A DNA stretch of 45,469 nucleotides from Proteobacteria bacterium UBA6522 (GCA_002434915.1 DJLG01000110.1:1868-47336), one strand, 5' to 3'. Counted from the stretch's first letter, positions 1-43,873 are shown. The notes: generated by a model not told the origin, from the letters alone. Made by a program: numbers and translations.

Positions 1-518
1 AGCAGGCAACGGAGCAGGAGGTTCTGGAGCCAGAGGTTACAGATGTTCCAAAAACAACAATCACTATTACTGTGAATGGTAGCTTGCACCAAATCGAGGT
101 TGAGGACCGTTGGACTTTAATCGAACTTCTTCGTGATCATTTAGAGCTAACGGGTTCTAAAATTGGATGTAATCGTGGGGAATGCGGTTCCTGCACTGTG
201 TTGGTAGACGGAGAACCCGTTTATTCATGCAGCACATTGGCAGTTTGGGCTGATGGCCAAGATGTTTTGACTGTTGAGGGCCTTGAGAAAGATGGCCAGT
301 TATCTGTTTTGCAGCAGGCATTCATGGAACATAATGCCCCGCAATGTGGGTTCTGTACCTCTGGTCAATTGATGTCGGCTACCGCATTGCTTGAGGAAAA
401 CCCAGAGCCAACGGTAGATGAAGTGAGGCATGCCTTAGCAGGGAATCTCTGTCGATGTTCTAATTATAATGCGATTGTTGAGGCAGTAATGGATGCCTCT
501 AGAACGGGAGACGCATGA
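1..518 (+). CDS. (2Fe-2S)-binding small subunit of a xanthine dehydrogenase/aldehyde oxidoreductase-family molybdoenzyme (CoxS/PaoA-like). The 5' end is probably cut by the window edge (codon phase starts at base 3).
   Basis: Two Cys clusters are present: GCNRGECGSCTV and CGFCTSG...CRCSNY. The frame is open from base 3 (QATEQEVLEPEVTDVPKTTITITVNG), so the GTG at 72 may be internal. An ATGA stop/start overlap joins it to the next gene at 515-518. Confidence 0.9.
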   Translation, partial: QATEQEVLEPEVTDVPKTTITITVNGSLHQIEVEDRWTLIELLRDHLELTGSKIGCNRGECGSCTVLVDGEPVYSCSTLAVWADGQDVLTVEGLEKDGQLSVLQQAFMEHNAPQCGFCTSGQLMSATALLEENPEPTVDEVRHALAGNLCRCSNYNAIVEAVMDASRTGDA

Positions 519-2668
519 TGGCAATAGATCCTCTAAAAACTGTCGGTCATGATATTCCTCGCATTGATGCATATGAACGAGTCACTGGAAAAGCTACATA
601 TAATCGCGATATAAAGCTGCCAGGAATGCTGTATGCAAGGGTTCTGCGCAGCAATGTGCCCCATGCCAACATTATAAGTATTGATACCTCAAGGGCTGAG
701 GCATTGCCCGGGGTTCGGGCCGTCATTACTCATGAAACTCACCAACTGATTTATGGTTCTGGGTCTATCTCAGGAGGACGCCAGTACAACGACGCTGTAA
801 AAGATATTACGAGACGTCTACGACATATGTTTCCAAATCCAGTGAGATTCGTAGGTCAGCCTGTAGCTGCAGTTGCAGCAGTCAATCGTCATGTGGCTGA
901 GGAAGCTATTCAACTTATTGAAGTCTCTTATGAGGAGCTACCATTTGTGCTTGACCCGGAAGAGGCATTACAGCCAGGAGCCCCTGCCATATGGCCTGAT
1001 GGGAACATGGCTCATGATGATCAAAATCGCCAGGAACCTATTGGAAGCCAATCAGGCGATATTGAGGCGGGTTTTCAGCAGGCTGATCATATTTTTGAAG
1101 ATCGTTATACAACAGCGTTTGTGCAGGATGCGCAAATGGAGCCGCGCTCTGCTCTGGCTCACTGGGAGGGAGAAAAGCTTATTTTGCATACACCAACCCA
1201 AGGTGTTTCTAACTGTCGGCATGATAACGCTCGCGACCTTGGAATTGATGATCATCAGATTCAGGTTATTTGTAAATATATGGGTGGTGGTTTTGGCGAT
1301 AAGAATGGTAGCTATTACTTCGATTTAATCGCAGCAATGTTGTCAAAAGAGACTAATGTTCCTGTGATGGTAGAGCTTTCACGCAAGGATGATTGGTTAG
1401 GTACACATGGTCGATGGCATACCGTTCAGGATTACAAGGTTGGTGTAGCTGATGATGGAACAGTAACTGCCATACAAATGAATGCTTTAAGTGGAATGGG
1501 CCCATATCTAAGAAGATCAGGAAACATTGGTGGTATAGATGCTTACGGTTGTCCAAATGTTGATCGTAAGATTTATCCGGTTCATACAAACCGAATGGTC
1601 TCAGGAAATTTTCGTGCCCCTCAATATCCCCAGGGTTATTTTGGCATTCAATCCTTCATGGACAACATAGCATATGAGGTTGGCCTAGATCCTGTTGAGT
1701 TCGCCTTAAAAAATATGCGGAAACCAACAGAAGAAGAGCCTTTCACAAATTATTCTCTCGACCAGTGTATTGAACAGGGCGCTGAAGATTTTGGATGGAG
1801 AGAGAGATGGCGTAGTGAGCCTGGTTCAGACCCGGGAATCATAAAGCGTGGTGCCGGTATGGGGTTTGCTATTTTCAACTCTACGGTATCCCCTAGCAGC
1901 GCAATTGTTCGTGTCGATTCCAGTGGGCAATACACGCTATTTGTTGGCGTAACTGATATTGGACCTGGAGCAAAAACCACGATGTCGCTTATTGCTGCAG
2001 AAGCGCTCGATGTCGGAGTATCTGATGTAGATATTGTGTGGGGTGATACGGATCGCTGCCCATACTCTATTGGTGAGTCAGGGGCCAGAACGACTACAAG
2101 CACAGGTTATGCGGTTATGCAGGCAGCTATTGATCTTAAGGAGCAAATTGCAGCTAAGGGTTTGCCCGCAGATGACGAAGTGCTAATTGCATCGGCAACT
2201 CCAAACCCAAGTGGTGATGGGAGACGCCGCGCGTGTTTTGGTGCACATTTTGTAGAAGTAGAGATAGATACCGAACTTGGACATGTGGGCATTAAAAAAT
2301 ATGTAGCTGTCCATGAGTCAGGTCGAATATTGAATCCTTTGCCAGCTAGGGATCAAATCCGTGGTGCTGTACAACAAGGTATCGGCCAGGCGTTGCATGA
2401 GGATCTTCTTTACGATGTCAGGAACGGACATCCGCTTAATGCGGGTTTTTACGGTGCCCGACACATAACGCATGTAGATGCTCCAGAGATTGAGGTGAGT
2501 TTTATTGAAACTGATGATGGTTTTGGGCCGTTTGGCGGAAAAACAGTGGCGGAAATGGGAATCATCTGTCCGCCATCAGCGGTCGCTAATGCAATATTTA
2601 ATGCTACAGGCATACGAATGAAAGACCTGCCCATCACTCGGGAAAAAATGTTGGAGGCACTGGCATGA
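515..2668 (+). CDS. Molybdopterin-binding large subunit of the xanthine dehydrogenase/aldehyde oxidase family
   Basis: The 717-aa protein has a GGGFGDK motif and overall XDH/CoxL/PaoC-like sequence character. It is translationally coupled on both sides by ATGA overlaps at 515-518 and 2665-2668. Confidence 0.9.
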   Translation: MMAIDPLKTVGHDIPRIDAYERVTGKATYNRDIKLPGMLYARVLRSNVPHANIISIDTSRAEALPGVRAVITHETHQLIYGSGSISGGRQYNDAVKDITRRLRHMFPNPVRFVGQPVAAVAAVNRHVAEEAIQLIEVSYEELPFVLDPEEALQPGAPAIWPDGNMAHDDQNRQEPIGSQSGDIEAGFQQADHIFEDRYTTAFVQDAQMEPRSALAHWEGEKLILHTPTQGVSNCRHDNARDLGIDDHQIQVICKYMGGGFGDKNGSYYFDLIAAMLSKETNVPVMVELSRKDDWLGTHGRWHTVQDYKVGVADDGTVTAIQMNALSGMGPYLRRSGNIGGIDAYGCPNVDRKIYPVHTNRMVSGNFRAPQYPQGYFGIQSFMDNIAYEVGLDPVEFALKNMRKPTEEEPFTNYSLDQCIEQGAEDFGWRERWRSEPGSDPGIIKRGAGMGFAIFNSTVSPSSAIVRVDSSGQYTLFVGVTDIGPGAKTTMSLIAAEALDVGVSDVDIVWGDTDRCPYSIGESGARTTTSTGYAVMQAAIDLKEQIAAKGLPADDEVLIASATPNPSGDGRRRACFGAHFVEVEIDTELGHVGIKKYVAVHESGRILNPLPARDQIRGAVQQGIGQALHEDLLYDVRNGHPLNAGFYGARHITHVDAPEIEVSFIETDDGFGPFGGKTVAEMGIICPPSAVANAIFNATGIRMKDLPITREKMLEALA

Positions 2669-3675
2669 AGACATTTACAAACCAGAACCCGGGCACTGTG
2701 GATGAGGCGATAGGGTTTGTTCGCACTGCAAGAGAAGATGGGCATTCCGTGTCGTTTGCAGGTGGAGGTACAGATCTTTTGCAGTTGGTTAAGGAAAGAG
2801 TTGTCAATCGATCAGGACAAGACGTTCCAGACGTTCTTGTGAACCTCAAATCATTAGAAGGAGTTGATCAGGTAAGTTTCAATAGTCTAGGTGGTGTGGC
2901 TATCGGAGGGCTTACAACTCTTAGTAACCTTGCTAACAATTCTAGAATTTCTGATGACTATAAGGTGCTTGCCGAAGCGGCAGGACAAGTAGGAACACCT
3001 CAGATTCGTAATGTTGGAACACTTGCTGGAAATGTTTGTCAGAGACCTTGGTGCTGGTATTACCGAAATGGATTGCCTTGTTATAAGGCAGGGGGTAACG
3101 AGTGCTTTTCAATAGTAGGCGAAAATCAGCTACATGCGATTTTTGGCGGTGGACCTAGTTTTATTGTGCATCCATCTGATGTTGCTCCTGCACTAGTTGC
3201 CTTGGATGCGTCATTTAATGTTGCTGGCCCATCGGGGAATCGAGTTATTTCTAGTTCTGATTTTTTTGTTTTGCCCCGTGATGATGTCCAACATGAAAAT
3301 GTCTTGTCGGATGAAGAATTTTTGATATCAGTAGATTTGCCGGCACCTTCTAACGGGTTGAAGAGTGCTTACCACAAGGTTATGGACCGGGATGCTTGGA
3401 CTCATGCACTAGTGAGTGCTGCAATAGTTATGGAGATGGATGAAGAGATTTGCAGGTCAGCAAAGATAGTTTTGGGTGGCGTGGCGCCTGTGCCATGGCG
3501 TGTTCCTGCAGCTGAGGAACTGTTGATTGGGAATGTCGTGACGGAAGAGCTAGCGAGATCAGTGGGGGCAGCTGCAGTCGCCGGAGCAAGACCGCTTGCA
3601 AAGAATGCGTACAAAATACCATTAGTCAGAGGTGTAGTGGCACGCACTGTATTGGCGCTTGCCGCTACGGTTTAG
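2665..3675 (+). CDS. FAD-binding medium subunit of the molybdenum hydroxylase (CoxM/PaoB-like)
   Basis: It has the FAGGGTDLL FAD-binding motif, is 336 aa long, and is the third gene of the S-L-M set. Confidence 0.9.
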   Translation: MKTFTNQNPGTVDEAIGFVRTAREDGHSVSFAGGGTDLLQLVKERVVNRSGQDVPDVLVNLKSLEGVDQVSFNSLGGVAIGGLTTLSNLANNSRISDDYKVLAEAAGQVGTPQIRNVGTLAGNVCQRPWCWYYRNGLPCYKAGGNECFSIVGENQLHAIFGGGPSFIVHPSDVAPALVALDASFNVAGPSGNRVISSSDFFVLPRDDVQHENVLSDEEFLISVDLPAPSNGLKSAYHKVMDRDAWTHALVSAAIVMEMDEEICRSAKIVLGGVAPVPWRVPAAEELLIGNVVTEELARSVGAAAVAGARPLAKNAYKIPLVRGVVARTVLALAATV

Positions 3676-3678
3676 CTT

Positions 3679-4029
3679 ATGAATCGGCGTGATTTTCTCA
3701 CGCTGCGGACTAAGGGTCAGCAATGCGTCATCGAACTCTCTTGTGAGCGTTTGTACATGTTATATGCAGATGCCAATGCAGGAATAGGGCGCTGGAAGGT
3801 ATCTGAAGCAATTGGTAAAAATCAACAAGCTTGGGGAGGTGAGCCACCAATTCAGATTAACTCACAAACAGTTCCTGAGTTATTAGATACGCTTAATCAA
3901 GAACTGGCTAAAGCAGATATTTTAGTGTTGCTGGAGAAGCAATGGCTAGATAGTGAAGGGTTTGGTGCAGAAGTGGAAGTTTGCATCCAAGCATTTTGTG
4001 ATAGAGGTGGAATTGTGGAGTCTAGGTAG
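3679..4029 (+). CDS. Hypothetical 116-aa protein with an N-terminal RRDFL twin-arginine-like motif but no hydrophobic h-region
   Basis: It begins MNRRDFLTLRTKGQQ, starts 3 nt after the FAD subunit stop, and I recognise no family. Confidence 0.45.
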   Translation: MNRRDFLTLRTKGQQCVIELSCERLYMLYADANAGIGRWKVSEAIGKNQQAWGGEPPIQINSQTVPELLDTLNQELAKADILVLLEKQWLDSEGFGAEVEVCIQAFCDRGGIVESR

Positions 4030-4364
4030 TGATTAACAAAATTAAAGCCAATGTATTTTTTCTAGTTATTGTTTATACGCTTGCCGCATGTACTTTTGGT
4101 GTGGTTTCAGCTCAGAATTATTCTGATGTAGTCTTAAAAGAGCAAGTTGAGACTGTGTTACAGAGTGCTTCTGATTTGCCGGCAAATACCCTTACAGTCG
4201 AAGCTATGGATGGGGTTGTAACTATTATGGGCTCCGTTGTTTGTGATATGTGTGGTGGTTCTCGTACGCCCCCTGGTGTTAGAACCATTCAACAAAGTCT
4301 CGGAGCAGTAGTTCGAGCTATACCTGGTGTAAAAAGAATCGAGTTTGATTTGAACTTCCAATAA
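4029..4364 (+). CDS. BON-domain-like lipoprotein
   Basis: The GTG start overlaps the preceding TAG by 1 nt. There is a lipobox (LAAC). The BON-like pattern is LTVEAMDGVVTIMGSV...IPGVKRIEFDL, with a CDMCGG insertion. Confidence 0.55.
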   Translation: MINKIKANVFFLVIVYTLAACTFGVVSAQNYSDVVLKEQVETVLQSASDLPANTLTVEAMDGVVTIMGSVVCDMCGGSRTPPGVRTIQQSLGAVVRAIPGVKRIEFDLNFQ

Positions 4365-4476: not shown

Positions 4477-5499
4477 TTGAAACGATTAATTCTTGTTGCG
4501 TGTTTTATATATATGCCGACCGTAGTTCTATCTCAAAGCAGTGAATTTGTTGGTGAGTGGCTACTTCAATTAGAGAACGATAACAGAATAGGAATGCCGG
4601 CTGTTGGAAGCCTTGTTTTTGAGGAACATGAAGATAGTCTTGCAATTTATATTGATGGTGGGCCTGTAAATTTACTGGAACTGAATGGGAACCAAATCAG
4701 GTTTGATTTTGATTGGTCAGATCTACCTGATCTTATGCATATAAGCATAATGGATGGCACTCTTGAAAATGGTGTGATAGAGGGAATAGCTACTGAAAAT
4801 GGTGAAAATAGAGGAGCCTGGCGAGCGACTCGTATTTTGGAGTCAAACACCTCTGGGATGTCTCCAGCTCCAGTTGATTTAACAGGTATTTGGAGTCGCC
4901 CCTCTATTCTTAGTAAGCATAAGTTTGATTTGACTGAAGCGGGCGAGGCTTCTAACGCCACTTATGATCCAGCTATTGATGATCCAATACTACGTTGTGT
5001 TTCAGATGGTCTCATTCGTATGTCTCATGGTCCGTTTAGCATTGAAGTAGTTGAAAGACAGGGTCGATTATTTGTCCTGCATGAAGATTTAAATGAGATT
5101 CGGCGGATTTATCTTGATGGTAGAGATTTTCCAGAGGCTATTGATGATGCAAGTCTCGCAATGGGTTACTCAATAGGACGTTGGGAGGGATCAACACTGA
5201 TTGTTGAATCTCGTGGATTAAAGCGAACAGTTTGGGATGCTGGAGGAATGCCTATTTCATCCGGGGCGAGGGTAATAGAGCGATGGTACTTAGACTCAAC
5301 AGGTCAATTACACGTGGAATTTAGCATGACCGATCCTGTCAATTATAATCGCCCAGTAAAAATGCATACCCTTCGGCAAAAAAGTCCTGATGATGCAGAG
5401 ATAAGTGAATATTCATGCGATCCGCATGCTTTCTACCGCAGCTTACAATTAGAGGATCGGTTGGACGAGTATTGGGGGCGATCTATAAATCGTCGATAG
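4477..5499 (+). CDS. Exported protein of unknown function, 'L-type' paralog 1
   Basis: A TTG start is preceded by GGAGGGGGG, and a signal peptide is present. Family motifs are DPILRCVSDGLIRM, GRWEGSTLIVES, DPVNYNRPV and a C-terminal YSCDPH. Confidence 0.7.
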   Translation: MKRLILVACFIYMPTVVLSQSSEFVGEWLLQLENDNRIGMPAVGSLVFEEHEDSLAIYIDGGPVNLLELNGNQIRFDFDWSDLPDLMHISIMDGTLENGVIEGIATENGENRGAWRATRILESNTSGMSPAPVDLTGIWSRPSILSKHKFDLTEAGEASNATYDPAIDDPILRCVSDGLIRMSHGPFSIEVVERQGRLFVLHEDLNEIRRIYLDGRDFPEAIDDASLAMGYSIGRWEGSTLIVESRGLKRTVWDAGGMPISSGARVIERWYLDSTGQLHVEFSMTDPVNYNRPVKMHTLRQKSPDDAEISEYSCDPHAFYRSLQLEDRLDEYWGRSINRR

Positions 5500-5540
5500 A
5501 AATAGTAAGCCAGTCGTTTGGTTTATATTTTGGAGGTCAG

Positions 5541-5906
5541 ATGATGAGATTCTATTTTACGGTTTGTGCGATTTTGGTTTGTACTTGTCTAAAATATAAT
5601 TTAGCTGTCGGTCATCATGCGATTTCAGCTAATTATGATGAGAATTCACTTGGAACTATTGAAGGTTCGGTTGTAGAGGTGTTCTGGGCAAACCCTCATG
5701 TTCACTACTATTTAGAAATTACTAATGACCTTGGTAGCATTGACCTGTGGGATATTGAGACAAGTAGTCTAATTGCTCTTTCTCGGGTTGGTTGGACTAA
5801 AGAAACAATTAAGGTTGGGGATACTATAAGAGTTTCTGGCCAACTAGGTCGGAATGGGATAAAACGACTAAATCTTGATAGAGATTCACTGCAAATTCTT
5901 GAATAG
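5541..5906 (+). CDS. Small exported protein, 'S-type' paralog 1 (HH...NPH family; resembles DUF6152 from memory)
   Basis: The ATG at 5541 follows a GGAGG Shine-Dalgarno site, so the track ORF start at 5415 is an upstream extension overlapping the previous gene. The signal peptide ends LAVG|HH, and the WANPH motif is present. Confidence 0.75.
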   Translation: MMRFYFTVCAILVCTCLKYNLAVGHHAISANYDENSLGTIEGSVVEVFWANPHVHYYLEITNDLGSIDLWDIETSSLIALSRVGWTKETIKVGDTIRVSGQLGRNGIKRLNLDRDSLQILE

Positions 5907-7565: not shown

Positions 7566-8075
7566 CTATCTTGCCCGATAACTATCACGCACATCTTGGG
7601 TATAACCGATAACTGCTGTCGGCTTGATTTCGATCATTGTTCCTGGCCGAGCAAATCCAACTACTGTGATTAATGCACTTGACGGATACCTACCGTCACT
7701 AAAATATTCGCTCCGGATTTCAGTGAATTGGTCGCCATCACGCACATCTTGGATATAAACAGTCATCGTTACAATATCCGAGAGAGCTCCGCCATAATGA
7801 CTGAGCCTTTGTTCGATAAGTCGAAATACTTCCCGTGTTTGTGCTTCAAAGTCCCCCGAAATATCGTTTCCATTTTCATCTGTAAGTGTTGTATGACCGG
7901 CAACCCAAACTGTGGTGCCACCTGTAGTAGCAACCGCCCTTGAAAAAGCACGACTCTCACCGTATTCATCAATTAGGTAATCCTTAGTCACCGGAACAAG
8001 GTCTTGGGATCCTGCTGGCGCTGTCATAGCTAGTAGGATTAAAGGGAATATTTTTTTTAGGATAATTTTGTTCAT
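7566..8075 (-). CDS. RidA/YjgF/L-PSP family protein with a signal peptide
   Basis: The N-terminal signal is ILLAMTAPAGSQD. RidA-like core: VWVAGHT...FEAQTREVFRLIEQRL...DIVTMTVYI...PSSALITV...IEIKPTAV. Confidence 0.8.
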   Translation of the reverse strand: MNKIILKKIFPLILLAMTAPAGSQDLVPVTKDYLIDEYGESRAFSRAVATTGGTTVWVAGHTTLTDENGNDISGDFEAQTREVFRLIEQRLSHYGGALSDIVTMTVYIQDVRDGDQFTEIRSEYFSDGRYPSSALITVVGFARPGTMIEIKPTAVIGYTQDVRDSYRAR

Positions 8076-8148: not shown

Positions 8149-9012
8149 TTAAGTTTCTGGCGAATACAGTGTCGTCATAGTTGCCGTTATGCATAGCACT
8201 ATAATTATCAGTAATATTTCTAATGAAATGGCCCGCTTAAAAATCGAGATAGAGTGGTGATTTTCTATTGAAAGAGAGGGTCCAAGTTTGAATTTATTGA
8301 ATGCTGCTATACCCATTAACGCTGAAAAACCAATGATTTTGCTTGTAAGTAATATGCCGTAAGGGGTTTTAAGGCTAGTTAAGCTGGGGAGAAGTATTAA
8401 TGCGATCCCTAATCCAGCACATGGTATTAGGGGGACAGTAAAGCTCGCTATTTTTGAGAAATGTTTTACAAGCTTTGCCGCTATTAATTTTTCTTGTGAA
8501 CATACTAAATGTAACGGTATAAGCGCTCCAAACCAAAAAGCGGCTAAAAGTAAATGGATAGTAAGGAGAATCGCAAGAACCCACTGCTGTTCGCTTGCTG
8601 CTACATGCCCCATCAAACTAAATGAAGCTGCTATAAAACAGGCACCAACTATTCCAGCCATACGACTCAGCCTCGAAGATTGTAGAAATGATGCTCCTAC
8701 AATTATTGTTCCTAATAACTTTAAAAACTGAGCAAACCCAAAGTTAGATGTGATTAAAAATTCATGTAAGGAAAAGTCAAGGAAGCCACTTAGTAATCCA
8801 GTTAAGCGTATCGGTTCTAAAAGATAACGTACAAGTATAAAAGTTGCTCCGGATAAGGCAGAAATTTTGCCTAGTAAATAGATAGGGGTTTTTGATATTG
8901 TCAAATGGCGATTAAAAAGACTAATAAACAAAGCTACGCCAGCAGATTGTAGTAGAGATATAAAAATTGCTGTACGCAGAACTACAACAAAGCTATCCAG
9001 CATGTTAGTCAA
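8149..9012 (-). CDS. copD: Copper resistance/uptake membrane protein CopD
   Basis: This 287-aa polytopic membrane protein lies 3 nt downstream of copC, the typical copCD arrangement. Confidence 0.75.
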   Translation of the reverse strand: MTNMLDSFVVVLRTAIFISLLQSAGVALFISLFNRHLTISKTPIYLLGKISALSGATFILVRYLLEPIRLTGLLSGFLDFSLHEFLITSNFGFAQFLKLLGTIIVGASFLQSSRLSRMAGIVGACFIAASFSLMGHVAASEQQWVLAILLTIHLLLAAFWFGALIPLHLVCSQEKLIAAKLVKHFSKIASFTVPLIPCAGLGIALILLPSLTSLKTPYGILLTSKIIGFSALMGIAAFNKFKLGPSLSIENHHSISIFKRAISLEILLIIIVLCITATMTTLYSPET

Positions 9013-9015
9013 TGG

Positions 9016-9384
9016 TTACTTTCTAGATACTAACTCTGCTATTTCAAATTGGAATTCACCAGATACAATATGCATATCTGCGCCAACCGCACGCCACTTA
9101 ACTATATAAGTACCGGGTGGAATTGAAGGTGTAGAAATAGAAAATTCTTGTTGCGTGGTGGTTGGCATTGCACCAAGGTCAATAACTTTTCCATCGTTAT
9201 CTTCTACAGAAAAAGCAGTGAGCCTGACTTCTGTGGAAAAACCCAATGCGATATTTTCGGGAGCTATAGTTTCTATCGAGTTATCAGCTGGATTAGAGCT
9301 TGACAGTACCGTATGTGCTTGTGCAGGCAGCCCTAGTATTGCCAAAAAAACTGTTATAAATAGCGTCAATATACGTATTTTCAT
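9016..9384 (-). CDS. copC: Periplasmic copper-binding protein CopC
   Basis: The signal peptide ends AQA|HTVL, placing His at mature position 1. The CopC pattern is SSNPADNS...YIVKWRAVGADMHIVSGEFQFEI, with a D-x-H motif. Confidence 0.85.
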   Translation of the reverse strand: MKIRILTLFITVFLAILGLPAQAHTVLSSSNPADNSIETIAPENIALGFSTEVRLTAFSVEDNDGKVIDLGAMPTTTQQEFSISTPSIPPGTYIVKWRAVGADMHIVSGEFQFEIAELVSRK

Positions 9385-11652: not shown

Positions 11653-12036
11653 CTAGGTGATTCTATTTGGGTAAACGTCGTAGTTTTTTCCGCTATAGGT
11701 TACCCGCACAGTTTTAACCTCATAACTCTCAGGATTACTATTACGATTACCACGTATGGATACTTCAGCACCTACAGGTATAGTTTCTTCAGCAAGCCCG
11801 GAACGTCTAGTTCTTGATGGTGGACCCATAGTGATATCCCAGACTTGTCCACTTTCGTCTTCGATCTGCATATGTGCGTGTGGACCTGACATGCTGAGAG
11901 CCCGATGCAATGTTCCGGATAACTCGAATTGATCGTTAGTTTGTCCGCTCCAGCCGTGGTGTGCCGAGACCTGAGTTGCCACTAATCCAAGTGTTACGAA
12001 GATTGTAGCAATACTGACAGTTATTTTGTTAAGCAT
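11653..12036 (-). CDS. Small exported protein, 'S-type' paralog 2 (the most divergent copy)
   Basis: The ATG at 12036 follows AAGGA, whereas the track start at 12051 is a TTG with no SD. The signal peptide ends VSA|HH. The motif SGPHAHM replaces NPH. Confidence 0.7.
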   Translation of the reverse strand: MLNKITVSIATIFVTLGLVATQVSAHHGWSGQTNDQFELSGTLHRALSMSGPHAHMQIEDESGQVWDITMGPPSRTRRSGLAEETIPVGAEVSIRGNRNSNPESYEVKTVRVTYSGKNYDVYPNRIT

Positions 12037-12134
12037 AATCTGTTCCTTCAAACGGGATTTAGCGCCTCACCAGTAGGCCAACAATAGCATATCTCTAGTA
12101 TATAAGGCGTAGCTTCTTAACAATTTTTCGCCTC

Positions 12135-12665
12135 CTATTGAGGTATCACAGCGACGGCTTCCACTTCTAAAACAAATCTTGGGTCTGAAGCTACACGAAC
12201 AATCTCTATAGTTGTACTGGCTGGGTTATGGTTTGGTCCCCAATATCGATTCATCACCTCTCGAATCGTGTCTCCATTAGTGGCAACATCTTTAACAAAT
12301 TTTGTAACTTGAATTACATCTGTAATTTCTCCCCCAGCGGCTTCAACTGTTCTTTTTATTCTTTCCATTACTCTAACTGTTGCAGCTTCAGCACCAAAGT
12401 CTAGATGATCAAATTCAGTTGCATCATGAGGGTGGCTATGTGGGACTGGTGCACCACTTGTGCCTGAAAGAAACAAAATCTGACCTGATCCAACAGAAAT
12501 CGCTGAGGTAAACGGCATGTTTGCACCACTGCTAGGCTCAGTTCCCGGCAGGTGAATATACTCAAACTGTTGATCACCTGTGCTGCAGCCGCAAAGAATC
12601 AGTGTGATAAATATTAAGGCCCATATCCTTAACCTCTTATTTAATTGCACTAAAGACTGAATCAT
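12135..12665 (-). CDS. RidA/YjgF family lipoprotein
   Basis: There is a GGGGGA SD and a lipobox (LILCGCS). RidA-like core: ILFLSGTSG...VMERIKRTVEAAGGEITDVIQVTKFV...STTIEIV...LEVEAVAV. Confidence 0.75.
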   Translation of the reverse strand: MIQSLVQLNKRLRIWALIFITLILCGCSTGDQQFEYIHLPGTEPSSGANMPFTSAISVGSGQILFLSGTSGAPVPHSHPHDATEFDHLDFGAEAATVRVMERIKRTVEAAGGEITDVIQVTKFVKDVATNGDTIREVMNRYWGPNHNPASTTIEIVRVASDPRFVLEVEAVAVIPQ

Positions 12666-14165: not shown

Positions 14166-15041
14166 ATGCAGGTTAGGGTCGTTATAGTTGCCATAACATG
14201 GGGTATTTTAAATATATCTCAGTCCGCATATGCGCAGGTTACACCAGAGGTCCAGTCTGTTCTCTATGAGGCGGCAGACACGCTAGGGTTACTTCGAACA
14301 CCTAGAGAAGTGGACCGTGTCATAACCATGATTTATTCAGGTTCAGGAACTAGGGTCATAGAGGGTGAAACTTGTGTCATGGATAGTTATCGAGCTAGTT
14401 TGCGCTATGCAATACCTGAAATTGTTCATCCTTTCCCGGTACCGGGTATGCGTGTTGATTTCACTTGTGTTGTTAGTGATGCCGAGCCACAGCGTTATGT
14501 GCAAGTTGTGGCAGGAGGATATGCTTGGGATGAAGATGAGCCAGGCGGCAACTCAGAGTCTATGCCTGAGACATTGCGTGAAAGATTGTTACAGATATGG
14601 CTTGTTCCACAGGGCCTAGTAAAGGCTGCTGTTGAAGCTGGGGAATTAGCTACCGCATCTTCTAATAGCGATGGAAATCCTGTGCTTACTTTTCCCTTGC
14701 CTGCTCCATTAGATGACACGATTGTGCAAGCCACATTTGACCCAGAAGTGTTTCTTTATCATACGATGCCAAACGGTACTAGGCGTGAATTTGGTCACCG
14801 GCTTGTACATGTTGAAACCGAGTTTGACGGTACCTTAGTAGAGGTGGCGTATGCTGACTACCAGGATTGGAATGAGTCTGACTATAAGGCAGATGTTTTG
14901 TTGCCGGGCCATATTATACAAACGGTTGATGGGGCTACGGTTATGGATTTAAATCTAAGTCTGAGCAACACATATAACCCTTATGTGGTTATGCCGTTGC
15001 CGGCAAACATTGCTGCGGCAGGAACTGCATTCTCAGAGTAA
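14166..15041 (+). CDS. Exported hypothetical protein (291 aa), first gene of an operon with the S3 and L2 paralogs
   Basis: It has an AAGGAG SD and a signal peptide ending SAYA|Q. I recognise no family. Confidence 0.6.
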   Translation: MQVRVVIVAITWGILNISQSAYAQVTPEVQSVLYEAADTLGLLRTPREVDRVITMIYSGSGTRVIEGETCVMDSYRASLRYAIPEIVHPFPVPGMRVDFTCVVSDAEPQRYVQVVAGGYAWDEDEPGGNSESMPETLRERLLQIWLVPQGLVKAAVEAGELATASSNSDGNPVLTFPLPAPLDDTIVQATFDPEVFLYHTMPNGTRREFGHRLVHVETEFDGTLVEVAYADYQDWNESDYKADVLLPGHIIQTVDGATVMDLNLSLSNTYNPYVVMPLPANIAAAGTAFSE

Positions 15042-15104: not shown

Positions 15105-15515
15105 ATGCATCATAAATTTCGCTTAGTTGGTTTGGTGGGTGCTATGTTGGGTTTTCTTTTAGCGGCAACTCCAATAACTGCGCATCATGCAATCCAGGCT
15201 CAGTTTGATCAGGATAGGCTTGCTACTATCACTGGTGTGATGAGACGTGTGATGTGGATAAACCCACATGTGCGTTGGTTTTTAGATGTTGAGGATGAAA
15301 ATGGTGATGTAACCTCCTGGAATATCTCTGGGTCAGGACCTGGCGCGTTTCGTCGTGTAGGTATAAGTGGCCGCGATGTGTTCGTAACAGGAGAGACCTA
15401 CACTGCTACGATCGCTTTAGCAAAGGATGGGTCAGATTTTGGGTATATTGTCTCATTTATTCTTCCCGATGGCAGGAAGATTGATTTATGGCATCAATAC
15501 CAGTCCGAGGGTTAA
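15105..15515 (+). CDS. Small exported protein, 'S-type' paralog 3
   Basis: The signal peptide ends ITA|HH, followed by AIQAQFD, WINPH and DVEDENGDVTSWNISG. Confidence 0.75.
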   Translation: MHHKFRLVGLVGAMLGFLLAATPITAHHAIQAQFDQDRLATITGVMRRVMWINPHVRWFLDVEDENGDVTSWNISGSGPGAFRRVGISGRDVFVTGETYTATIALAKDGSDFGYIVSFILPDGRKIDLWHQYQSEG

Positions 15516-18358: not shown

Positions 18359-19429
18359 TTGCAAGTACTACTAGGTAATAAGGCTAAGAGAGCAGTTTGG
18401 TCAAGCATTATATTGTTTTTCTTTTTGCCAATAAGTCTTCAGGCTCATCACTCTAGAGCAGAATTTTCTGGAGGGGATTTTCGAGAAATTGAGGGAGAAG
18501 TTGTTCGTGTGTCATGGAGAAACCCTCATGTTACTTTCAATATTAGAACAGTTTCATCAGATGGTTCTGAAGAAATGTGGGAGCTTGAGGCTGGGGATGT
18601 TGCAACTCTAGCTAGGCGTGGTTTGGACAACGGTTACATTAATGTAGGTGATATGATTACAGTGGCGGGACCAATATCGACCCGGCGCGATAACTTTTTG
18701 GCTATTGCCCATGCTTTATTAAGTAATGGTGTTGAGATGATTTTTGGAAACCGTGAACCACGATGGTCGGATCAATATATGGGTGGTGGAAGTGCCACAG
18801 TTTCTGCAAGCGAAGAGATAGAAGCTGATCTAGAAGATATTTTCCGGGTTTGGATTCGAATGGGCCCGACCCCTTACGAGGTAATTGAGCAGCCACCGCT
18901 CACTTCTGAGGCAAGGGCTATTTGGCAGAATTATGATTTTTTCCATGATGATCCTGTACTTAATTGCAATTTGCCTGGTATGCCGCGTGTCATAACTATG
19001 GCTGGTTCTCGGCCTATAGAATTTGAAAAGCATGGCAACGATATCTTGTTGCATTCAGAAAACTTTAACCTGACTAGGGTTATTCATATGGAAGAAGATG
19101 AATTGGATGGCGACATAGAATCCACACCATTAGGATATTCTCGGGGGCACTGGAATGGAGATACTTTAATTATTACTACCACGCATATTAGTTGGCCATT
19201 ATTTGAGTTGCCCCCCTTGTATGGTATTCCTCAAAGCGAGGAAATGAAGATTATTGAGCAATTTACCCTTATAGATAATGAGTTAGTGTATGACTTTTGG
19301 GCAAATGATCCTGTGAATTTCACTCAGCCCATAGAAGAGCAGAGATACTTCGTTTGGCGGTGGGATCCGGAAGTGGAAATTAGAGCTCATGAGTGCGAGA
19401 TTACTTTAAGACCAGGTTCTGAGGAGTGA
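18359..19429 (+). CDS. Natural fusion of an S-type domain (N-terminal) and an L-type domain (C-terminal)
   Basis: The TTG start follows GGTGGAG. The signal peptide ends LQA|HH, followed by WRNPH (S motifs). Next come DPVLNCNLPGMPRV, GHWNGDTLIITT, NDPVNFTQP and AHECE (L motifs). Confidence 0.75.
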   Translation: MQVLLGNKAKRAVWSSIILFFFLPISLQAHHSRAEFSGGDFREIEGEVVRVSWRNPHVTFNIRTVSSDGSEEMWELEAGDVATLARRGLDNGYINVGDMITVAGPISTRRDNFLAIAHALLSNGVEMIFGNREPRWSDQYMGGGSATVSASEEIEADLEDIFRVWIRMGPTPYEVIEQPPLTSEARAIWQNYDFFHDDPVLNCNLPGMPRVITMAGSRPIEFEKHGNDILLHSENFNLTRVIHMEEDELDGDIESTPLGYSRGHWNGDTLIITTTHISWPLFELPPLYGIPQSEEMKIIEQFTLIDNELVYDFWANDPVNFTQPIEEQRYFVWRWDPEVEIRAHECEITLRPGSEE

Positions 19430-22855: not shown

Positions 22856-23686
22856 TTATGATGGACGATCACCCTTAATAGTAACTCGTCTACCTTTACG
22901 TTCTTCTGGCCAGTAGTCCCAAACTGCCCTATGCATAGCGCAGCGGTTATCCCAAAAGGCTACATCATTTATTTCCCAGCGAAAACGAATCTGAAAGTCT
23001 ATTTTTTCACAATGATCATATAAATAATCGAGTATCGCTCGACTTTCTGTTTCGTTGAGTTCATTAATACGTGTGGTGAAGGTTCGGTTGACATAAATAG
23101 ATTTTTTGCCAGTTTCAGGGTGAGTTCTTATCACTGGATGTATCGCATGTGGGTAAAGTTTTCCATCATCGTCTACGCCTCGATCAGAATACCGACCGCG
23201 GTAAACATGTTCCGATTCATGGAGCGCAGTCAAATTAGATAGAGTCTCTTTAAACGGTTGTGATAAAGCATCATATGCCGCATAACTATTAGCAAATAAA
23301 GTATCACCACCTGATTCAGGCAAAATATGTATTTGTAACATTGTTCCAAGAGGGGGTTCTTCGTCACAAGAAACGTCCGAATGCCAGAACTCACCATTAG
23401 CAACCTTAGAGTTTTTTTGTACGTGAATTTCAAAAATTTCTGGATGACCTGTCATCTGAGGTGCAGCTGGATGCGCATGTAAGTCACCAAATAGCTTGCC
23501 AATATTGATTTGAGTTTCAGCAGCCATTTCTGTTTGATCTTTAAAAAAAAGAACTTGAAATTTTAGAAATGCTTTTCGAATTGCTTTATATGTTGTGGAA
23601 TCAATGCCATTAGCTAGATTAATCCCCCTGACTTCGGCGCCAAGCGCCGGAGAAAATGGTTTAATTTGAATCTGTTCTACTGACAT
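22856..23686 (-). CDS. TauD/TfdA-family Fe(II)/2-oxoglutarate dioxygenase
   Basis: Motifs present: WHSDVSCDEEPPLGTMLQ, GGDTLFAN and WDNRCAMHRAV. Confidence 0.85.
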   Translation of the reverse strand: MSVEQIQIKPFSPALGAEVRGINLANGIDSTTYKAIRKAFLKFQVLFFKDQTEMAAETQINIGKLFGDLHAHPAAPQMTGHPEIFEIHVQKNSKVANGEFWHSDVSCDEEPPLGTMLQIHILPESGGDTLFANSYAAYDALSQPFKETLSNLTALHESEHVYRGRYSDRGVDDDGKLYPHAIHPVIRTHPETGKKSIYVNRTFTTRINELNETESRAILDYLYDHCEKIDFQIRFRWEINDVAFWDNRCAMHRAVWDYWPEERKGRRVTIKGDRPS

Positions 23687-26265: not shown

Positions 26266-27312
26266 ATGCCACAAACAGGGAGTAGGGCCTTCGAGCTCGC
26301 AGAGCAAGGACTTTTACCCGATATGGTTATTCGGTTAGGGATACGTCGACTATTGAAAGCAAGGCTGATTGAGATAGGAGAGCAAGACTGCGAAAGTATG
26401 ATCTTTGATCAGCAACGCTTCATAGAGATGATGAATGCTAGTGAAATTGCGCCAGTACCTCATTTGGCCAATGAGCAGCATTATGAAGTGCCAGCTGAGT
26501 TTTTTAAATTAGTCCTTGGAGGACGTTTGAAATATAGCTGTGGATATTGGCCTAAAGATGAGATGACATTGGAAGAAGCGGAATCTGCCGCACTGAAGGT
26601 AACAGCGGAGCGAGCACTTTTAAAAAATGGCCAGACAATTTTAGATCTTGGTTGTGGTTGGGGTTCTTTTAGCTTGTGGGCAGCAGAGAATTATCCGGAC
26701 AGTTCCATTACTGCGGTATCTAATTCCAGTGCTCAGCGGGTTGCAATTGAGGCTGAGATAGAACGACGTAATCTCAAAAATTTAACTGTTCTTACACAGG
26801 ATATGAATGAGTTTGAACCAGTGACTAAGTTTGATCGAATTCTCTCAATAGAAATGTTTGAGCATATGAGAAATTACAGATTATTTTTTAATCGTATTTC
26901 TAAATGGTTAAATCCTGAAGGACGATTTTTTATGCATATCTTTTGTCATCGATCTACTGCATATGAGTTTGTTGATAGTGGTCCAAGTGACTGGATGACT
27001 AGACACTTTTTTTCAGGAGGGATAATGCCAAGCGATGATTTGCCCCTTAGGTTTCAAGAGGACCTTACTTTATGTGGAAAGTGGCGTTGGGATGGTAATC
27101 ATTATAAAAAAACAGCAAATGCTTGGTTGCAAAATATGGACTCTCAGCAAAGTGAAGTTATGCCTGTCATGTGTTCAACATATGGTGAAAAATTGTCAAG
27201 CAAGTGGTGGATGCGTTGGAGAATATTTTTTATGGCTTGCTCTGAATTGTTCGGTTATGAAAAGGGGCAGCAATGGTGGGTAGGCCACTATTTATTTAAA
27301 CGCGCTAATTGA
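26266..27312 (+). CDS. Cyclopropane-fatty-acyl-phospholipid-synthase-family SAM methyltransferase (paralog 1)
   Basis: It has the SAM motif ILDLGCGWGSF and a CMAS-like N-terminus (HYEVPAEFFKLVLGGRLKYSCGYW). Confidence 0.85.
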   Translation: MPQTGSRAFELAEQGLLPDMVIRLGIRRLLKARLIEIGEQDCESMIFDQQRFIEMMNASEIAPVPHLANEQHYEVPAEFFKLVLGGRLKYSCGYWPKDEMTLEEAESAALKVTAERALLKNGQTILDLGCGWGSFSLWAAENYPDSSITAVSNSSAQRVAIEAEIERRNLKNLTVLTQDMNEFEPVTKFDRILSIEMFEHMRNYRLFFNRISKWLNPEGRFFMHIFCHRSTAYEFVDSGPSDWMTRHFFSGGIMPSDDLPLRFQEDLTLCGKWRWDGNHYKKTANAWLQNMDSQQSEVMPVMCSTYGEKLSSKWWMRWRIFFMACSELFGYEKGQQWWVGHYLFKRAN

Positions 27313-27357
27313 TGCTGATTACTGCTACGACTAATAGGCAAAAAATATATTTTTCAA

Positions 27358-27900
27358 ATGCGTTTTTATCTTAATCTTGTTGCTTTTCAGATAGGTTGGT
27401 TTGCATGTGTTTTTGGTGCGGCACATTCCATTCCTGTATTAGGGCCTATGGTGGTATTAGTAGTGATTGCGTTGCATTTGTTTTTATCAAAAAGGCCATA
27501 TAGAGAGTTAAGTCTCATAGGTATAGCAGGATTAATAGGTCTTTCATGGGATAGTTTTCTTGTAATAGCCGGTCTTGTAGCCTATCCGTCAGGTATGATT
27601 ATTGATAGTTTGGCTCCGTATTGGATAATCGCAATGTGGATGCTATTTGCTACTACACTTAATGTTTGTCTGCGATGGTTAAGAAAAAAGTACTTACTGA
27701 GTCTAGTTCTTGGTGCATTTATGGGCCCATTAACCTATTATTCTGGCGCAAAAATTGGAGGAATAAGTCTTTTAAATCAGATGGATAGCTTAATTTCGAT
27801 AGGGCTAGGATGGGCAGTGATATTACCCCTGCTAAGTGAGCTTTCTAGAAGATTAGATGGTTCCGGTATTCCTGAGGGCTTTAATCACCCCAATGTTTGA
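27358..27900 (+). CDS. DUF2878-like small membrane protein
   Basis: The N-terminus (LVAFQIGWFACVFGAA), about 5 TM segments, and its position in the conserved CFA/DUF1365 cluster support the call. Confidence 0.6.
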   Translation: MRFYLNLVAFQIGWFACVFGAAHSIPVLGPMVVLVVIALHLFLSKRPYRELSLIGIAGLIGLSWDSFLVIAGLVAYPSGMIIDSLAPYWIIAMWMLFATTLNVCLRWLRKKYLLSLVLGAFMGPLTYYSGAKIGGISLLNQMDSLISIGLGWAVILPLLSELSRRLDGSGIPEGFNHPNV

Positions 27901-28663
27901 TTCTTACCTTTTGGCATTAGCAATTGTGATGAGCTTTGCCGTATTGGCATGGGGTGTGAGCCTACGGTTACGAGATGTCAGTATTGTAGATAGCATTTGG
28001 TCGTTAATGATAGCGGCCACATCAATAGCTTATTTTGCTCTAACCCCTCAAGTAGAGCCTAGAGGTTATATCGTTTTATTTCTTGTATGGATTTGGGGTA
28101 TTCGTTTATCTGTTTACCTCACCTGGAGAAACTGGGGCCTAGAGGAGGATTCCCGCTATAAAGAAATTCGAAAGAATAATGAGCCTAACTTTGAGGTAAA
28201 GAGTCTCTATATTATTTTTGGTTTACAGGCTTTTGCAGCATCAATTGTTTCTTTATCACTACTTGCTGGAATTGCTAGTCGGTCAGCGCTCGGATGGCTT
28301 GATTTGTTAGGACTCTTACTATGGGTTATTGGTTTTCTTTTTGAAAGTATTAGTGATCATCAACTCAGTCAGTTTCAATCTGATACAAACAATAAAAATC
28401 AGGTTCTTGATAAAGGGTTATGGAAGTACACTCGTCATCCAAACTACTTTGGAGATTTTTGTATTTGGTGGGGATTTTATTTGTTTGCTCTAAGCGCAGA
28501 AAGTTGGTGGGCTATTATTTCTCCATTACTTATGAGCTTTTTATTGTTAAGATTTTCTGGAGTAGCTGTTCTTGAAAAAACTATCAAGGCGCGTCGTCCC
28601 GCATATGTAGAGTATGTGAATTCTACAAATACATTTTTCCCTGGTCCTAGAAAAAAACCATAA
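27893..28663 (+). CDS. DUF1295 membrane protein (steroid 5-alpha-reductase/ICMT-like fold)
   Basis: It contains LWKYTRHPNYFGDFCIWWGFYL. The ATG at 27893 overlaps the previous stop by 8 nt. Confidence 0.75.
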   Translation: MFDSYLLALAIVMSFAVLAWGVSLRLRDVSIVDSIWSLMIAATSIAYFALTPQVEPRGYIVLFLVWIWGIRLSVYLTWRNWGLEEDSRYKEIRKNNEPNFEVKSLYIIFGLQAFAASIVSLSLLAGIASRSALGWLDLLGLLLWVIGFLFESISDHQLSQFQSDTNNKNQVLDKGLWKYTRHPNYFGDFCIWWGFYLFALSAESWWAIISPLLMSFLLLRFSGVAVLEKTIKARRPAYVEYVNSTNTFFPGPRKKP

Positions 28664-28670
28664 ACTTGAT

Positions 28671-29912
28671 ATGAAAATTGCAATAATCGGAGCTGGAGTT
28701 TCCGGTAATACTGTTGCCTATCGACTGCATGAAAAGCATGACATAACAATATTTGAGGCTGAAGATTATATTGGTGGGCATGTAAATACTATTGATGTAG
28801 TTGAAGATGAGTCTGTAATCTCAGTTGATACTGGTTTTATCGTTTTTAACGATCGTACTTATCCCCAATTTACTTCGATTCTTAAAGACCTGGCCGTACC
28901 TTCTCAGGCGAGTGAGATGAGTTTTAGTGTGAGTTGTGAAAGTTCAGGGCTTGAATATAACGGCGCTAATTTTAATAAACTTTTTTGCCAGAGAAGTAAT
29001 TTTTTTCGATGGTCCTTTTATCAGATGATTTATGACATATTACGTTTTAATCATTTTGCGCCACGCGATTTAGTAGATGCAGATGCTAGTACGTTGCTCT
29101 GTGATTATTTAGATAAAAACGATTACTCTCCGCAATTCATAAACCAATATCTATTGCCGATGTGTGCTGCTATATGGTCTGCGGATCCTATGGCCATTGA
29201 GAAAGCTCCACTAATTTTTCTAGTTCGTTTTATGGAAAATCATGGCTTGTTAAGTATTAATAACCGTCCCCAATGGGGAGTAATAAAAGGAGGGTCAAAA
29301 AACTATATTAATCAAATGGCTAGTGCATATTCTTCTAAGATTAGATTGTCTACTCATGTCCAATGGGTTAAGCGATATCCAGGTTTTATAGAGATAAAAG
29401 CATCTGGAAGTGAGGTGCAACGGTTTGATGAGGTATTTTTAGCCTGTCACAGTGATCAAGCTTTACAACTATTAGCTGACCCTTCTCCTCTTGAAAAAGA
29501 GATTTTAGGAGCTATTAATTATCAATCTAATGAAGCGATTCTTCATACAGATGATTTGATTTTGCCAAGACGTAAATTAGCATGGGCAGCTTGGAACTAT
29601 TACATTCCAAAAGAACATGATGGTTCTGCATCTGTTACATACAATATGAATATTCTTCAAGGTTTAAAGTCTAAAAACATCTATTGTGTGACACTGAATG
29701 ATTCTGAAAGAATTCGACCGGATAAGATTATCAAAAGAATTATTTACCATCATCCAGTATTTACACAGGCAAGCATGGCAGCCCAGAAACGTCATAAAGA
29801 GATAAGCGGGGTTAATAGAACCTATTACTGTGGGGCTTATTGGGGAAATGGTTTTCATGAGGATGGTGTTGTAAGTGCTCTATCTGCCATAGAAGGTTTC
29901 GAGGAAAAATAA
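28671..29912 (+). CDS. FAD-dependent oxidoreductase (amine-oxidase/phytoene-desaturase-like)
   Basis: It has the N-terminal dinucleotide motif KIAIIGAGVSGN and the C-terminal pattern YYCGAYWGNGFHEDGV. Confidence 0.85.
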   Translation: MKIAIIGAGVSGNTVAYRLHEKHDITIFEAEDYIGGHVNTIDVVEDESVISVDTGFIVFNDRTYPQFTSILKDLAVPSQASEMSFSVSCESSGLEYNGANFNKLFCQRSNFFRWSFYQMIYDILRFNHFAPRDLVDADASTLLCDYLDKNDYSPQFINQYLLPMCAAIWSADPMAIEKAPLIFLVRFMENHGLLSINNRPQWGVIKGGSKNYINQMASAYSSKIRLSTHVQWVKRYPGFIEIKASGSEVQRFDEVFLACHSDQALQLLADPSPLEKEILGAINYQSNEAILHTDDLILPRRKLAWAAWNYYIPKEHDGSASVTYNMNILQGLKSKNIYCVTLNDSERIRPDKIIKRIIYHHPVFTQASMAAQKRHKEISGVNRTYYCGAYWGNGFHEDGVVSALSAIEGFEEK

Positions 29913-29916
29913 GGGC

Positions 29917-30687
29917 ATGGAAAGTTGTATTTTTGAAGGTCATATTAAGCACCATCGCTACTCGCCTGTTAGTCATGAATTTAAGTATCGCTTGTTCATG
30001 ATGTACATTGATTTAAACGAATTAGAGGACATATTTTGTGGACGATGGCTATGGTCATCTCATGGACTAGCACTTGCACAGTTTAGACGTAGTGATCACC
30101 TTGGCGATCCAGAACAGCCTTTAGACGAATCTGTTCGTGACCTAGTGGAGAAGAAAACTGGTCATCGACCTAGTGGGCCAATCCGATTATTAACACAGTT
30201 AAGTTATCTTGGTTATGGGTTCAGTCCAGTATGCTTTTACTATTGTTTTGATTCTTTAGGTAGGGATGTGGAGACGATTATTACCGAGGTAAATAATACG
30301 CCATGGGGAGAAAAGTATTGTTATGTATTATCAGATCCCACTAAAACTCAGAAAAATAATTTAAAATATTTCGAGCTTAGTAAAGATTTTCATGTTTCAC
30401 CTTTCATGGCGATGGATCTGGATTATGAGTGGAAGTTTTCTGATCCGTCGGAACGTATTTTTATACATATGAAGAATATAAAAAACGGAGATGCATTTTT
30501 TGAGGCTATATTGAGTCTCGGTAGATCTGAAATAACTGGACGATCATTAGCACGTTTGCTCATAGTTTATCCCCTAATTACGATAAAATTAGTTATAGGC
30601 ATTTATTGGCAAGCATTGCGTTTATGGTTGAAGAGATGCCCAGTTCATGATCACCCTAATAAGAGTAAAGTTATAACGGCTAAGTAA
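29917..30687 (+). CDS. DUF1365 protein
   Basis: The N-terminus (IFEGHIKHHRYSPVSHEFKYRLFMMYIDLNEL) is typical of DUF1365. It sits between the FAD oxidoreductase and a CFA synthase. Confidence 0.75.
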   Translation: MESCIFEGHIKHHRYSPVSHEFKYRLFMMYIDLNELEDIFCGRWLWSSHGLALAQFRRSDHLGDPEQPLDESVRDLVEKKTGHRPSGPIRLLTQLSYLGYGFSPVCFYYCFDSLGRDVETIITEVNNTPWGEKYCYVLSDPTKTQKNNLKYFELSKDFHVSPFMAMDLDYEWKFSDPSERIFIHMKNIKNGDAFFEAILSLGRSEITGRSLARLLIVYPLITIKLVIGIYWQALRLWLKRCPVHDHPNKSKVITAK

Positions 30688-43359: not shown

Positions 43360-43474
43360 AGTAATTATTGTTTTTTGAAGCTATTACGACTTTATCAGTT
43401 TATCAGAAAGTCTATACCGTCCACAGAACGCTAACAGATAACCTTTGACCTATTAGCTCTATGATACAAGTAGT

Positions 43475-43867
43475 TTAATTTGGTGAATTAGAAAATAGTG
43501 GTCTGCCATCGGGAAGCGTTGCTGCAGAAAGACTTGCGGTAGGAGTATTATTACGAGCTTGCCAACCTTGAATTTGTAGAATCGTTCCTACTGGTAGGTC
43601 TCCAGGACGCCAACCGAGGCGAATCAAATTATTAGCTGCTCGGGTTTCCAATGCCCAGTTAATAATTTCCCCATTGGAATTTTCAACATCAACATAGATC
43701 CATGCATGAGGATTTGCCCATTTCATTTCAGTCACAGTTCCCGTAAAACTAATAGGCTTATCTCTATCAAACTCAGCGGCAAACGCATGATGAGAAAACG
43801 CGTTATTAGTAAAACTAGTCAGAGAAAAGGTAAGAAGCAAGGTTGTTGTCTTAAAAAAACTAATCAT
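43475..43867 (-). CDS. Small exported protein, 'S-type' paralog 5
   Basis: The signal peptide ends AFS|HH, followed by AFAAEFD, WANPH and DVENSNGEIINWALE. It starts 6 nt after the L-L gene stop. Confidence 0.75.
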   Translation of the reverse strand: MISFFKTTTLLLTFSLTSFTNNAFSHHAFAAEFDRDKPISFTGTVTEMKWANPHAWIYVDVENSNGEIINWALETRAANNLIRLGWRPGDLPVGTILQIQGWQARNNTPTASLSAATLPDGRPLFSNSPN

Positions 43868-43873
43868 TTTCTT

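Follow-up and report, generated by a model that had tools for sequence, protein, structure and literature searches.

What is the role of a group of small exported proteins that appear to start, after removal of the signal peptide, with the pair His-His, and that carry a third His at a fixed distance downstream? Five copies of this protein, herein referred to as S, are encoded within a single stretch of bacterial DNA (hereafter the window; 45,469 nucleotides of Proteobacteria bacterium UBA6522, GCA_002434915.1 DJLG01000110.1:1868-47336, with positions counted from its first letter). The first-pass annotation of this window proposed that the three His form a site resembling the histidine brace, and that S is a periplasmic metal-binding protein, perhaps for copper, acting either as a metallochaperone or as the catalytic subunit of a pair with a second protein, L. 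After the analysis described below, we give roughly even chances to the reading that S is a Sec-exported protein of OB fold, in which His1 (through both its amino group and its imidazole), His2, and His28/29 form a brace-like metal site, and that S works together with L in a periplasmic module.

The S3 gene (15105..15515, + strand) encodes a DUF6152 protein of 136 aa (PF19649, E=3.8e-17), and direct reading of the DNA places an AAGGA ribosome-binding site about 9 nt 5' of its ATG. The translation, MHHKFRLVGLVGAMLGFLLAATPITA|HHAIQAQFDQDRLATITGVMRRVMWINPHV..., in which the bar indicates the cleavage junction (ITA|HH), is composed of a signal peptide encoded by 15105..15182 (MHHKFRLVGLVGAMLGFLLAATPITA) and a mature protein starting from 15183, with the codons for His1-His2 at 15183..15188 and the codons for N27-P28-H29 at 15261..15269.

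By a six-frame scan for the motif (HH followed by xPH) combined with an HMM made from homologues, exactly five S domains were identified in the window; beyond these, just two short frames of non-coding appearance matched HH plus xPH. All five are members of Pfam DUF6152 (PF19649) with scores of 62.6, 68.8, 34.4, 56.6, and 94.3 bits (values not in the order of the copies), above the gathering threshold of 27 bits, and they show the length of about 110-140 aa and the NPH motif expected of this family, the motif being NPH in four copies and GPH in S2. The S1 gene (LAVG|HH, with the HH codons at 5613..5618; Pfam E=4.4e-19) was first called as an ORF at 5415..5906 (+), overlapping the upstream gene L1 by 85 nt, whereas translation from 5541 (MMRFYF...) would yield an ordinary signal peptide of 24 residues and leave 41 nt between the gene and L1; as judged from the sequence, the true start is probably 5541, not 5415, and S1 is herein given as 5541..5906 (+). 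S2 (11653..12051, -; VSA|HH, first His codon starting at 11961; E=2.4e-8) is the most divergent paralogue and has no L neighbour. S4 (LQA|HH, with the HH codons at 18446..18451) was found as the N-terminal part of an S-L fusion of 356 aa (18359..19429, +), in which HMM domains assign residues 21-139 to S (Pfam PF19649) and residues 140-352 to L, the C-terminal part being 28% identical to L3, the partner of S3. S5 (43475..43867, -; AFS|HH, first His codon starting at 43792; E=5.1e-27) is the paralogue nearest to the Pfam consensus.

The other S copies are just 20-27% identical to S3, yet H1, H2, P28, and H29 are invariant in all five, and chance is thereby excluded. The third His, counted from His1, is residue 29 in three copies (S1, S3, and S5) and residue 28 in the other two (S2 and S4), in agreement with the count made in the first-pass annotation for every copy; across the family, the third His is present in 388 of 389 members. 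Mis-called ORFs or chance motifs were considered as the source of this pattern and were rejected, based on the conservation across the whole DUF6152 family.

The extent of this conservation was examined in several sets of sequences. When 1.84 billion representative proteins were searched with a profile, a total of 15,256 clusters (at 50% identity) were found with E<=1e-3, including 8,380 with E<=1e-10, and the precomputed Pfam label of almost all S homologues is PF19649. In an alignment of 389 DUF6152 members, H1 is present in all 386 sequences covering this position, H2 in 384 of 386, and H29 in 388 of 389, and thus the three His, the conservation of which in orthologs had been put forward as a check of the original proposal, are invariant family-wide. 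In the same alignment, high conservation was also observed for P28 (388/389), N27 (385), D9 (375/385), W25 (377), and W46 (385), and G18 and G60 are nearly invariant; position 8 is occupied by Phe (81%) or Tyr (18%), and about 85% of diverse representatives have Glu at position 49. Among closer homologues, HH...NPH with the third His at 29 was found in 234 of 240, the exceptions being three truncated sequences and three single substitutions, while among diverse representatives HH and xPH at positions 28-30 were found in 148 of 149, with NPH in 146. The triad is also present in 50 of 50 non-redundant S domains from the window and 29 related loci (from Rariloculaceae and other Gammaproteobacteria, Acidobacteriota, Sphingomonadales, and Micropepsaceae); S domains flagged by an over-strict pattern still show HH...NPH with a spacing of 28. 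Separately, two of the DUF6152 homologues (P0340 and P0355) carry a C-terminal LP(H/Q)TAS followed by a hydrophobic stretch and a basic tail, which resembles a cell-surface sorting or anchoring signal.

The location of HH at the mature N-terminus was predicted by a heuristic that requires the residue at -1 to be small and that at -3 to be of a permitted type, excludes Pro between -3 and +1, and looks for a preceding hydrophobic core. The |HH junction was accepted in 5/5 window copies, each of which has other candidate sites as well, and the junctions are those given in the first-pass annotation, directly before HH in all five. Family-wide, the -3/-1 rule and the hydrophobic core fit exactly at |HH in 353 of 370 presequences; the residue at -1 is Ala in 346 of the 370, and the median presequence length is 25 residues. 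In addition, the DUF6152 conservation begins exactly at HH, with the upstream part varying in both length and sequence. In all 12 of the short-presequence members inspected, the last part of a signal peptide (...LVA|HH) is still present, indicating that their starts are mis-called; no cytoplasmic M-H-H form was found among them, and cytoplasmic DUF6152 forms were rejected because every short-presequence member represents a truncated signal peptide. Taken together, DUF6152 proteins are most likely exported by the Sec system and, as far as the heuristic allows the exact site to be inferred, cut by signal peptidase I directly before HH.

If the free alpha-amino group of His1 is used, the triad is expected to be kept only where the S domain sits at the mature N-terminus, and the architecture of composite proteins agrees with this expectation. 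A total of 14 distinct S-L fusion proteins were found, including that at 18359..19429, and in all of them S is N-terminal and L is C-terminal. No L-S fusion was found among the fused proteins, though LL and S genes are separated by as little as 4-14 nt; wherever an LL gene precedes S, the latter remains an independent gene that encodes its own signal peptide. The representatives also include seven tandem S-S proteins, whose first domain always has the full triad and whose internal domain is always incomplete. In four of these (P0245, P0251, P0284, and P0293), the internal domain keeps HH and has lost the third His (NPR, KPR, GGR, and FPN, respectively); in two (P0280 and P0288), both HH and the third His (NPA) are lost; and in P0241, HH is lost and the third His is kept as DPH. 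The constant first position of S in fusions, the loss of the triad in internal domains, and the absence of an M-H-H form suggest that the S site needs a free N-terminus, and the restriction of the full triad to S domains at the mature N-terminus is supported by these composite proteins. The four internal domains that retain a non-terminal HH indicate at the same time that HH may have a role without the amino group.

The fold of mature S3 was predicted with AlphaFold2 using an alignment of 122 sequences. The model (pLDDT 89.7, pTM 0.82, with five residues below 70) is an OB-type barrel, composed of a short helix (3-6), a long bent strand (8-26), the NP turn, and strands 29-37 and 43-49, followed by helices and then strands 72-80, 86-93, and 99-101; its lowest confidence is found in the N-terminal block (mean pLDDT 75). 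Among the best 50 matches of this model by Foldseek against PDB, OB folds only were found, with TM of about 0.5, including the anticodon-binding domain of LysRS, SSB, PriB, and RPA, and none of LPMO, CopC, or CusF is included in these 50. Searches of PDB sequences by phmmer and hmmsearch gave no meaningful solved relative of S or L. S has no Pfam match to CopC or LPMO and belongs to none of the LPMO, CopC, PmoB, X325, and YcnI structural classes, which are beta-sandwiches.

Covariation was analyzed by mean-field DCA with 389 sequences (Meff 176). The strand pairing of an OB fold was recovered, with registers of about 54-56 for beta1-beta2, about 80 for beta2-beta3, and about 89 for beta1-beta4, and residue 31 pairs with 47 and 49. 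The N-terminal segment gave moderate signals of coupling, in the pairs 4-49, 4-77, 5-26, 6-20, and 7-20. By mutual information in 150 diverse sequences, the pairs 5-26, 4-77, and 4-49 rank 39, 50, and 100, respectively, of 5671 pairs; the 4-49 coupling, which is the strongest of the N-terminal segment, is partly a clade effect. These couplings suggest that the N-terminal segment of S probably packs on the beta1-beta2-beta3 face that bears His29, in a manner compatible with convergence of the three His. The prevalence of Glu at position 49 in diverse members makes this residue a possible further ligand.

S is tightly linked to L. In the 29 related loci, nearly every S gene adjoins an L gene or is fused to L. 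The partner of S3 is L3 (15581..16552, +; 323 aa), a probable lipoprotein with an FVAC lipobox and without a Pfam family. Relatives of L3 in the window were identified in the C-terminal part of 18359..19429, in L1 (4477..5499, +) immediately upstream of S1 (L HMM E=1e-61, and BLASTP to L3, L4, and L5), and in both halves of L5 (43874..45418, -), which contains two tandem L domains (L HMM E=5e-61 and 9e-54, and BLASTP) and is located immediately upstream of S5. L thus occurs as a single, tandem (LL), or S-fused form, and the LL-then-S arrangement of L5-S5 is also found in three of the related loci (L003, L028, and L029). As a separate observation, the region directly upstream of L1-S1 is occupied by an operon for a molybdoenzyme of the xanthine dehydrogenase family (72..4364, +; 2Fe-2S, MoCo, and FAD subunits, followed by a small protein and a BON-domain protein), and the same arrangement precedes the S/L genes in L029 (1..2854).

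A total of 754 homologues of L3 were collected, and the 120 listed are all devoid of Pfam domains; for both L and the third protein X (see below), no Pfam or NCBIfam family was found. L proteins are secreted, with a lipobox pattern in 22 of 120 homologues. Their mature N-terminus bears the conserved motif DG(K/R)PDL(S/T)G(R)W, after which comes a run of Gly, and they have an invariant Cys within C-x-P-x-G-x-P-R. The AlphaFold2 model of L3 (pLDDT 80.1) shows a helical region followed by a beta-barrel, the latter being weakly similar to FABP/SAHS calycins (Foldseek best E=8.5e-3). A possible assignment of L to Cu-oxidase_3, based on weak Pfam matches in 6 of 115 L members (best E=0.009), was rejected, as these matches probably represent an inherited chance similarity.

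Upstream of S3 lies the gene for X (14166..15041, +), a secreted protein of 291 aa. In 21 of the 24 loci L001-L024, the S3 orthologue is directly preceded by an X homologue of 47-74% identity (the exceptions being L003, L004, and L024; three of these 21 loci represent the same place), and the order X-S-L is common to Gammaproteobacteria and Acidobacteriota. No terminator-like site was found between X, S3, and L3. X corresponds to the N-terminal half of a 518-aa protein with a Lactamase_B domain in L027.

The wider neighbourhood of S is rich in genes for transport and catabolism. Transporters near S in the window include TRAP, Na:Ala symporter, and MFS types, and the catabolic genes include TauD (two copies), RidA (two copies), esterases, and DUF3500. 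LL, S5, a TauD-family dioxygenase, and an MFS transporter form a tightly spaced row of four genes (41210..45418, -); a second TauD paralogue (34% identical) is located at 22856..23686 (-). The two RidA/L-PSP paralogues (7566..8075, - and 12135..12665, -), one of which adjoins S2, have N-termini resembling those of exported proteins or lipoproteins, which is unusual for this mostly cytoplasmic family. Genes for TonB-dependent receptors were found within 8 kb in 12 of 30 sequences (29 loci and the window), the window itself having none. In two Acidobacteriota loci (L017 and L022), the order TBDR-X-S-L is found on one strand, with the TBDR gene ending 4-8 nt before X, and a Croceibacterium plasmid carries S-S-L-TBDR as immediate neighbours on one strand. 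Furthermore, 4-6 paralogous S domains are present in each of three stretches of about 11-45 kb (the window, L006, and L011). Based on the multiplication of S-L pairs and their location beside TonB-dependent receptors, inner-membrane transporters, and catabolic enzymes, a module for small molecules is inferred, and the same features argue against a copper-homeostasis chaperone.

The hint of copper in the original proposal came in part from a CopC gene in the window (9016..9384, -), which was noted to mature to A|HTVL as well. This reading of CopC was borne out, as the PF04234 match starts at the His of AQA|HTVL (the score is above the Pfam cut-off and below the NCBIfam equivalog cut-off), and CopC is paired with CopD (8149..9012, -). 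S2 is 2.3 kb away from this pair and S3 about 6 kb, and from this proximity and the N-terminal His of mature CopC one might consider that S is a copper-homeostasis chaperone working with CopC/CopD. This is very unlikely, because no homologue of either protein was detected in any of the 29 S-bearing related loci when the window CopC and CopD were compared by BLASTP with the locus ORFs; in addition, 4-6 S copies per stretch are unlike chaperones, and the conserved partners are L, X, and TonB-dependent receptors. The proximity of CopC/CopD was therefore rejected as evidence for copper, the pair being specific to this window and its nearness to S coincidental. The proposal of a periplasmic copper protein thus survives in part: export and the N-terminus-dependent triad agree with it, but of the two roles offered, the chaperone fits poorly with the copy number and the catabolic neighbours, and S is probably not a copper-homeostasis chaperone.

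The site that we propose would be built as follows. S would be a Sec-exported OB-fold domain of about 110 residues, from which signal peptidase I removes the presequence before HH. The free alpha-amino group and the imidazole of His1, together with His2 and His28/29, would then converge to form one mononuclear metal site, with His28/29 supplied from the N-P-H turn between strands beta1 and beta2, so that the site would be placed on the usual ligand-binding face of the OB fold, surrounded by F/Y8, D9, W25, W46 and, in most members, E49. The metal would most likely be Cu(II), by analogy with known sites of this type, and Ni or Zn are possible. S would work not alone but with L, encoded next to it or fused behind it, and the S-L pair may constitute a periplasmic module by which imported small molecules are captured or undergo a first chemical processing; in this module, the metal centre would belong to S and the ligand pocket to L.

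The invariance of the triad could also be explained without a brace. An ordinary site of three His (plus Asp9 or Glu49) for Zn, Ni, or Fe, using side chains only in a structural or hydrolytic role, is considered unlikely, even though His2, which is not required by the canonical brace, is as invariant as His1, conserved carboxylates (D9 and E49) are nearby, HH is retained in four internal S domains, and the relation of X to part of a metallo-beta-lactamase-domain protein brings zinc chemistry into the neighbourhood. If the amino group played no part, HH should be found at varying distances from the cleavage site, but this distance does not change in about 370 sequences, and S should be able to follow L in fusions, which is never the case; the loss of either the third His or HH from internal S domains is also against a site made of side chains only. 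A role for the triad other than in metal binding, in which the HH segment and His29 recognize a small organic ligand by one of its anionic or polar groups or dock S to the barrel of L, would agree with the near absence of S without L, with the position of the site on the canonical ligand-binding face of the OB fold, with the lack of conserved metal-handling genes nearby, and with neighbours (transporters, TauD dioxygenases, sulfatase, esterases, and TonB-dependent receptors) that point to organic substrates over metal homeostasis. Three invariant His, one of which is the first residue, in more than 15,000 clusters of low identity are, however, a typical signature of a metal site, and residues for substrate binding are expected to vary among paralogues in different catabolic contexts, which the triad does not; a non-metal role for the triad is accordingly rated as improbable.

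The brace-like site is best judged beside the established ones. All known histidine-brace proteins are unmasked by removal of a signal peptide (PMC10952591), and S shares with LPMOs (AA9-AA17), X325/Bim1, CopC, and PmoF1 (PMC10952591) the export, the predicted exposure of His1 by signal-peptide removal, and a second His that is distant in sequence. S differs from LPMO, X325, CopC, and PmoF1, which are immunoglobulin- or cupredoxin-like beta-sandwiches, in its modelled OB barrel, in the lack of a polysaccharide or copper gene context, and in the presence of an obligate partner, L, and from the canonical brace in its extra invariant His2. The F/Y8 of S recalls the axial Phe/Tyr of LPMOs, and is taken as a lead only. 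In PDB sequence searches and by Foldseek, no sequence or structural similarity of S to LPMO, CopC, or PmoB was found.

With respect to the proposed ligand set, S is closest to the CuB site of PmoB, which is likewise periplasmic and in which the N-terminal His (amine plus imidazole) and two further His provide four nitrogen donors (PMC10952591). The two additional His of PmoB are an HxH pair located far along the chain, whereas S would use its adjacent His2 as one of the two, and S is unrelated to PmoB in both fold and genomic context. CopC and YcnI (DUF1775), the latter with a 'mono-histidine brace', are small exported bacterial proteins that bind Cu(II) via the N-terminal His (PMC8424229; PMC10952591). 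Both are encoded in copper operons (ycnKJI and copCD), while S is not, and their folds differ from that of S.

CusF, a small periplasmic chaperone of OB fold for Cu(I)/Ag(I), carries its site on the beta2-beta3 face, with His on beta2 and Trp on beta3. A similar arrangement is predicted in S, where the invariant H29 is located at the start of beta2 and the invariant W46 on beta3; CusF, however, uses Met ligands and not the N-terminus, and belongs to the cusCFBA efflux operon. Homology between S and CusF was not detected, as hhalign gave a probability of 1% (a weak test, made with an approximate CusF sequence) and S has no Pfam match to CusF_Ec. In the Ni-hook of nickel superoxide dismutase, proteolysis exposes an N-terminal His and the amino group is used as a ligand; this protein is cytoplasmic, uses Cys ligands, and is unrelated to S in fold.

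To our knowledge, histidine-brace sites are known in just a handful of families, all of them beta-sandwiches, and we know of none on an OB fold. A review in 2023 raised the question of which other functions histidine-brace sites may have (PMC10952591). In the literature searched, no relevant publication was found on DUF6152/PF19649 or on a histidine brace with OB fold, and the DUF6152 triad is, as far as can be told, undescribed; a brace-like metal site in this family is plausible from its sequences and would be apparently new. DUF6152, with more than 15,000 clusters, has the sequence features expected of a metal site that depends on the N-terminus, here on a different fold, and its constant partner is just as uncharacterised. 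Should copper be bound, brace chemistry would extend to further structures and functions, and two 'hypothetical' protein families that are abundant among marine and soil heterotrophs would gain a role.

A more far-reaching possibility, for which we see only a slim chance, is that DUF6152 represents a large class of OB-fold brace copper proteins, which together with the calycin-like L constitute a two-part periplasmic copper oxygenase or peroxygenase acting on small organic compounds imported via TonB-dependent receptors. If this were true, the S-L pair would be a bacterial small-molecule counterpart of LPMOs, and such enzymes would be placed in marine Gammaproteobacteria, Sphingomonadales, Acidobacteriota, and Planctomycetota.

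Apart from the S and L genes, the window contains a row of genes (26266..31976, +) for a CMAS-like methyltransferase, DUF2878, DUF1295, an amine oxidase, DUF1365, and a second CMAS, which is a recurrent cluster of the cyclopropane-fatty-acid type and is unrelated to the finding on S.
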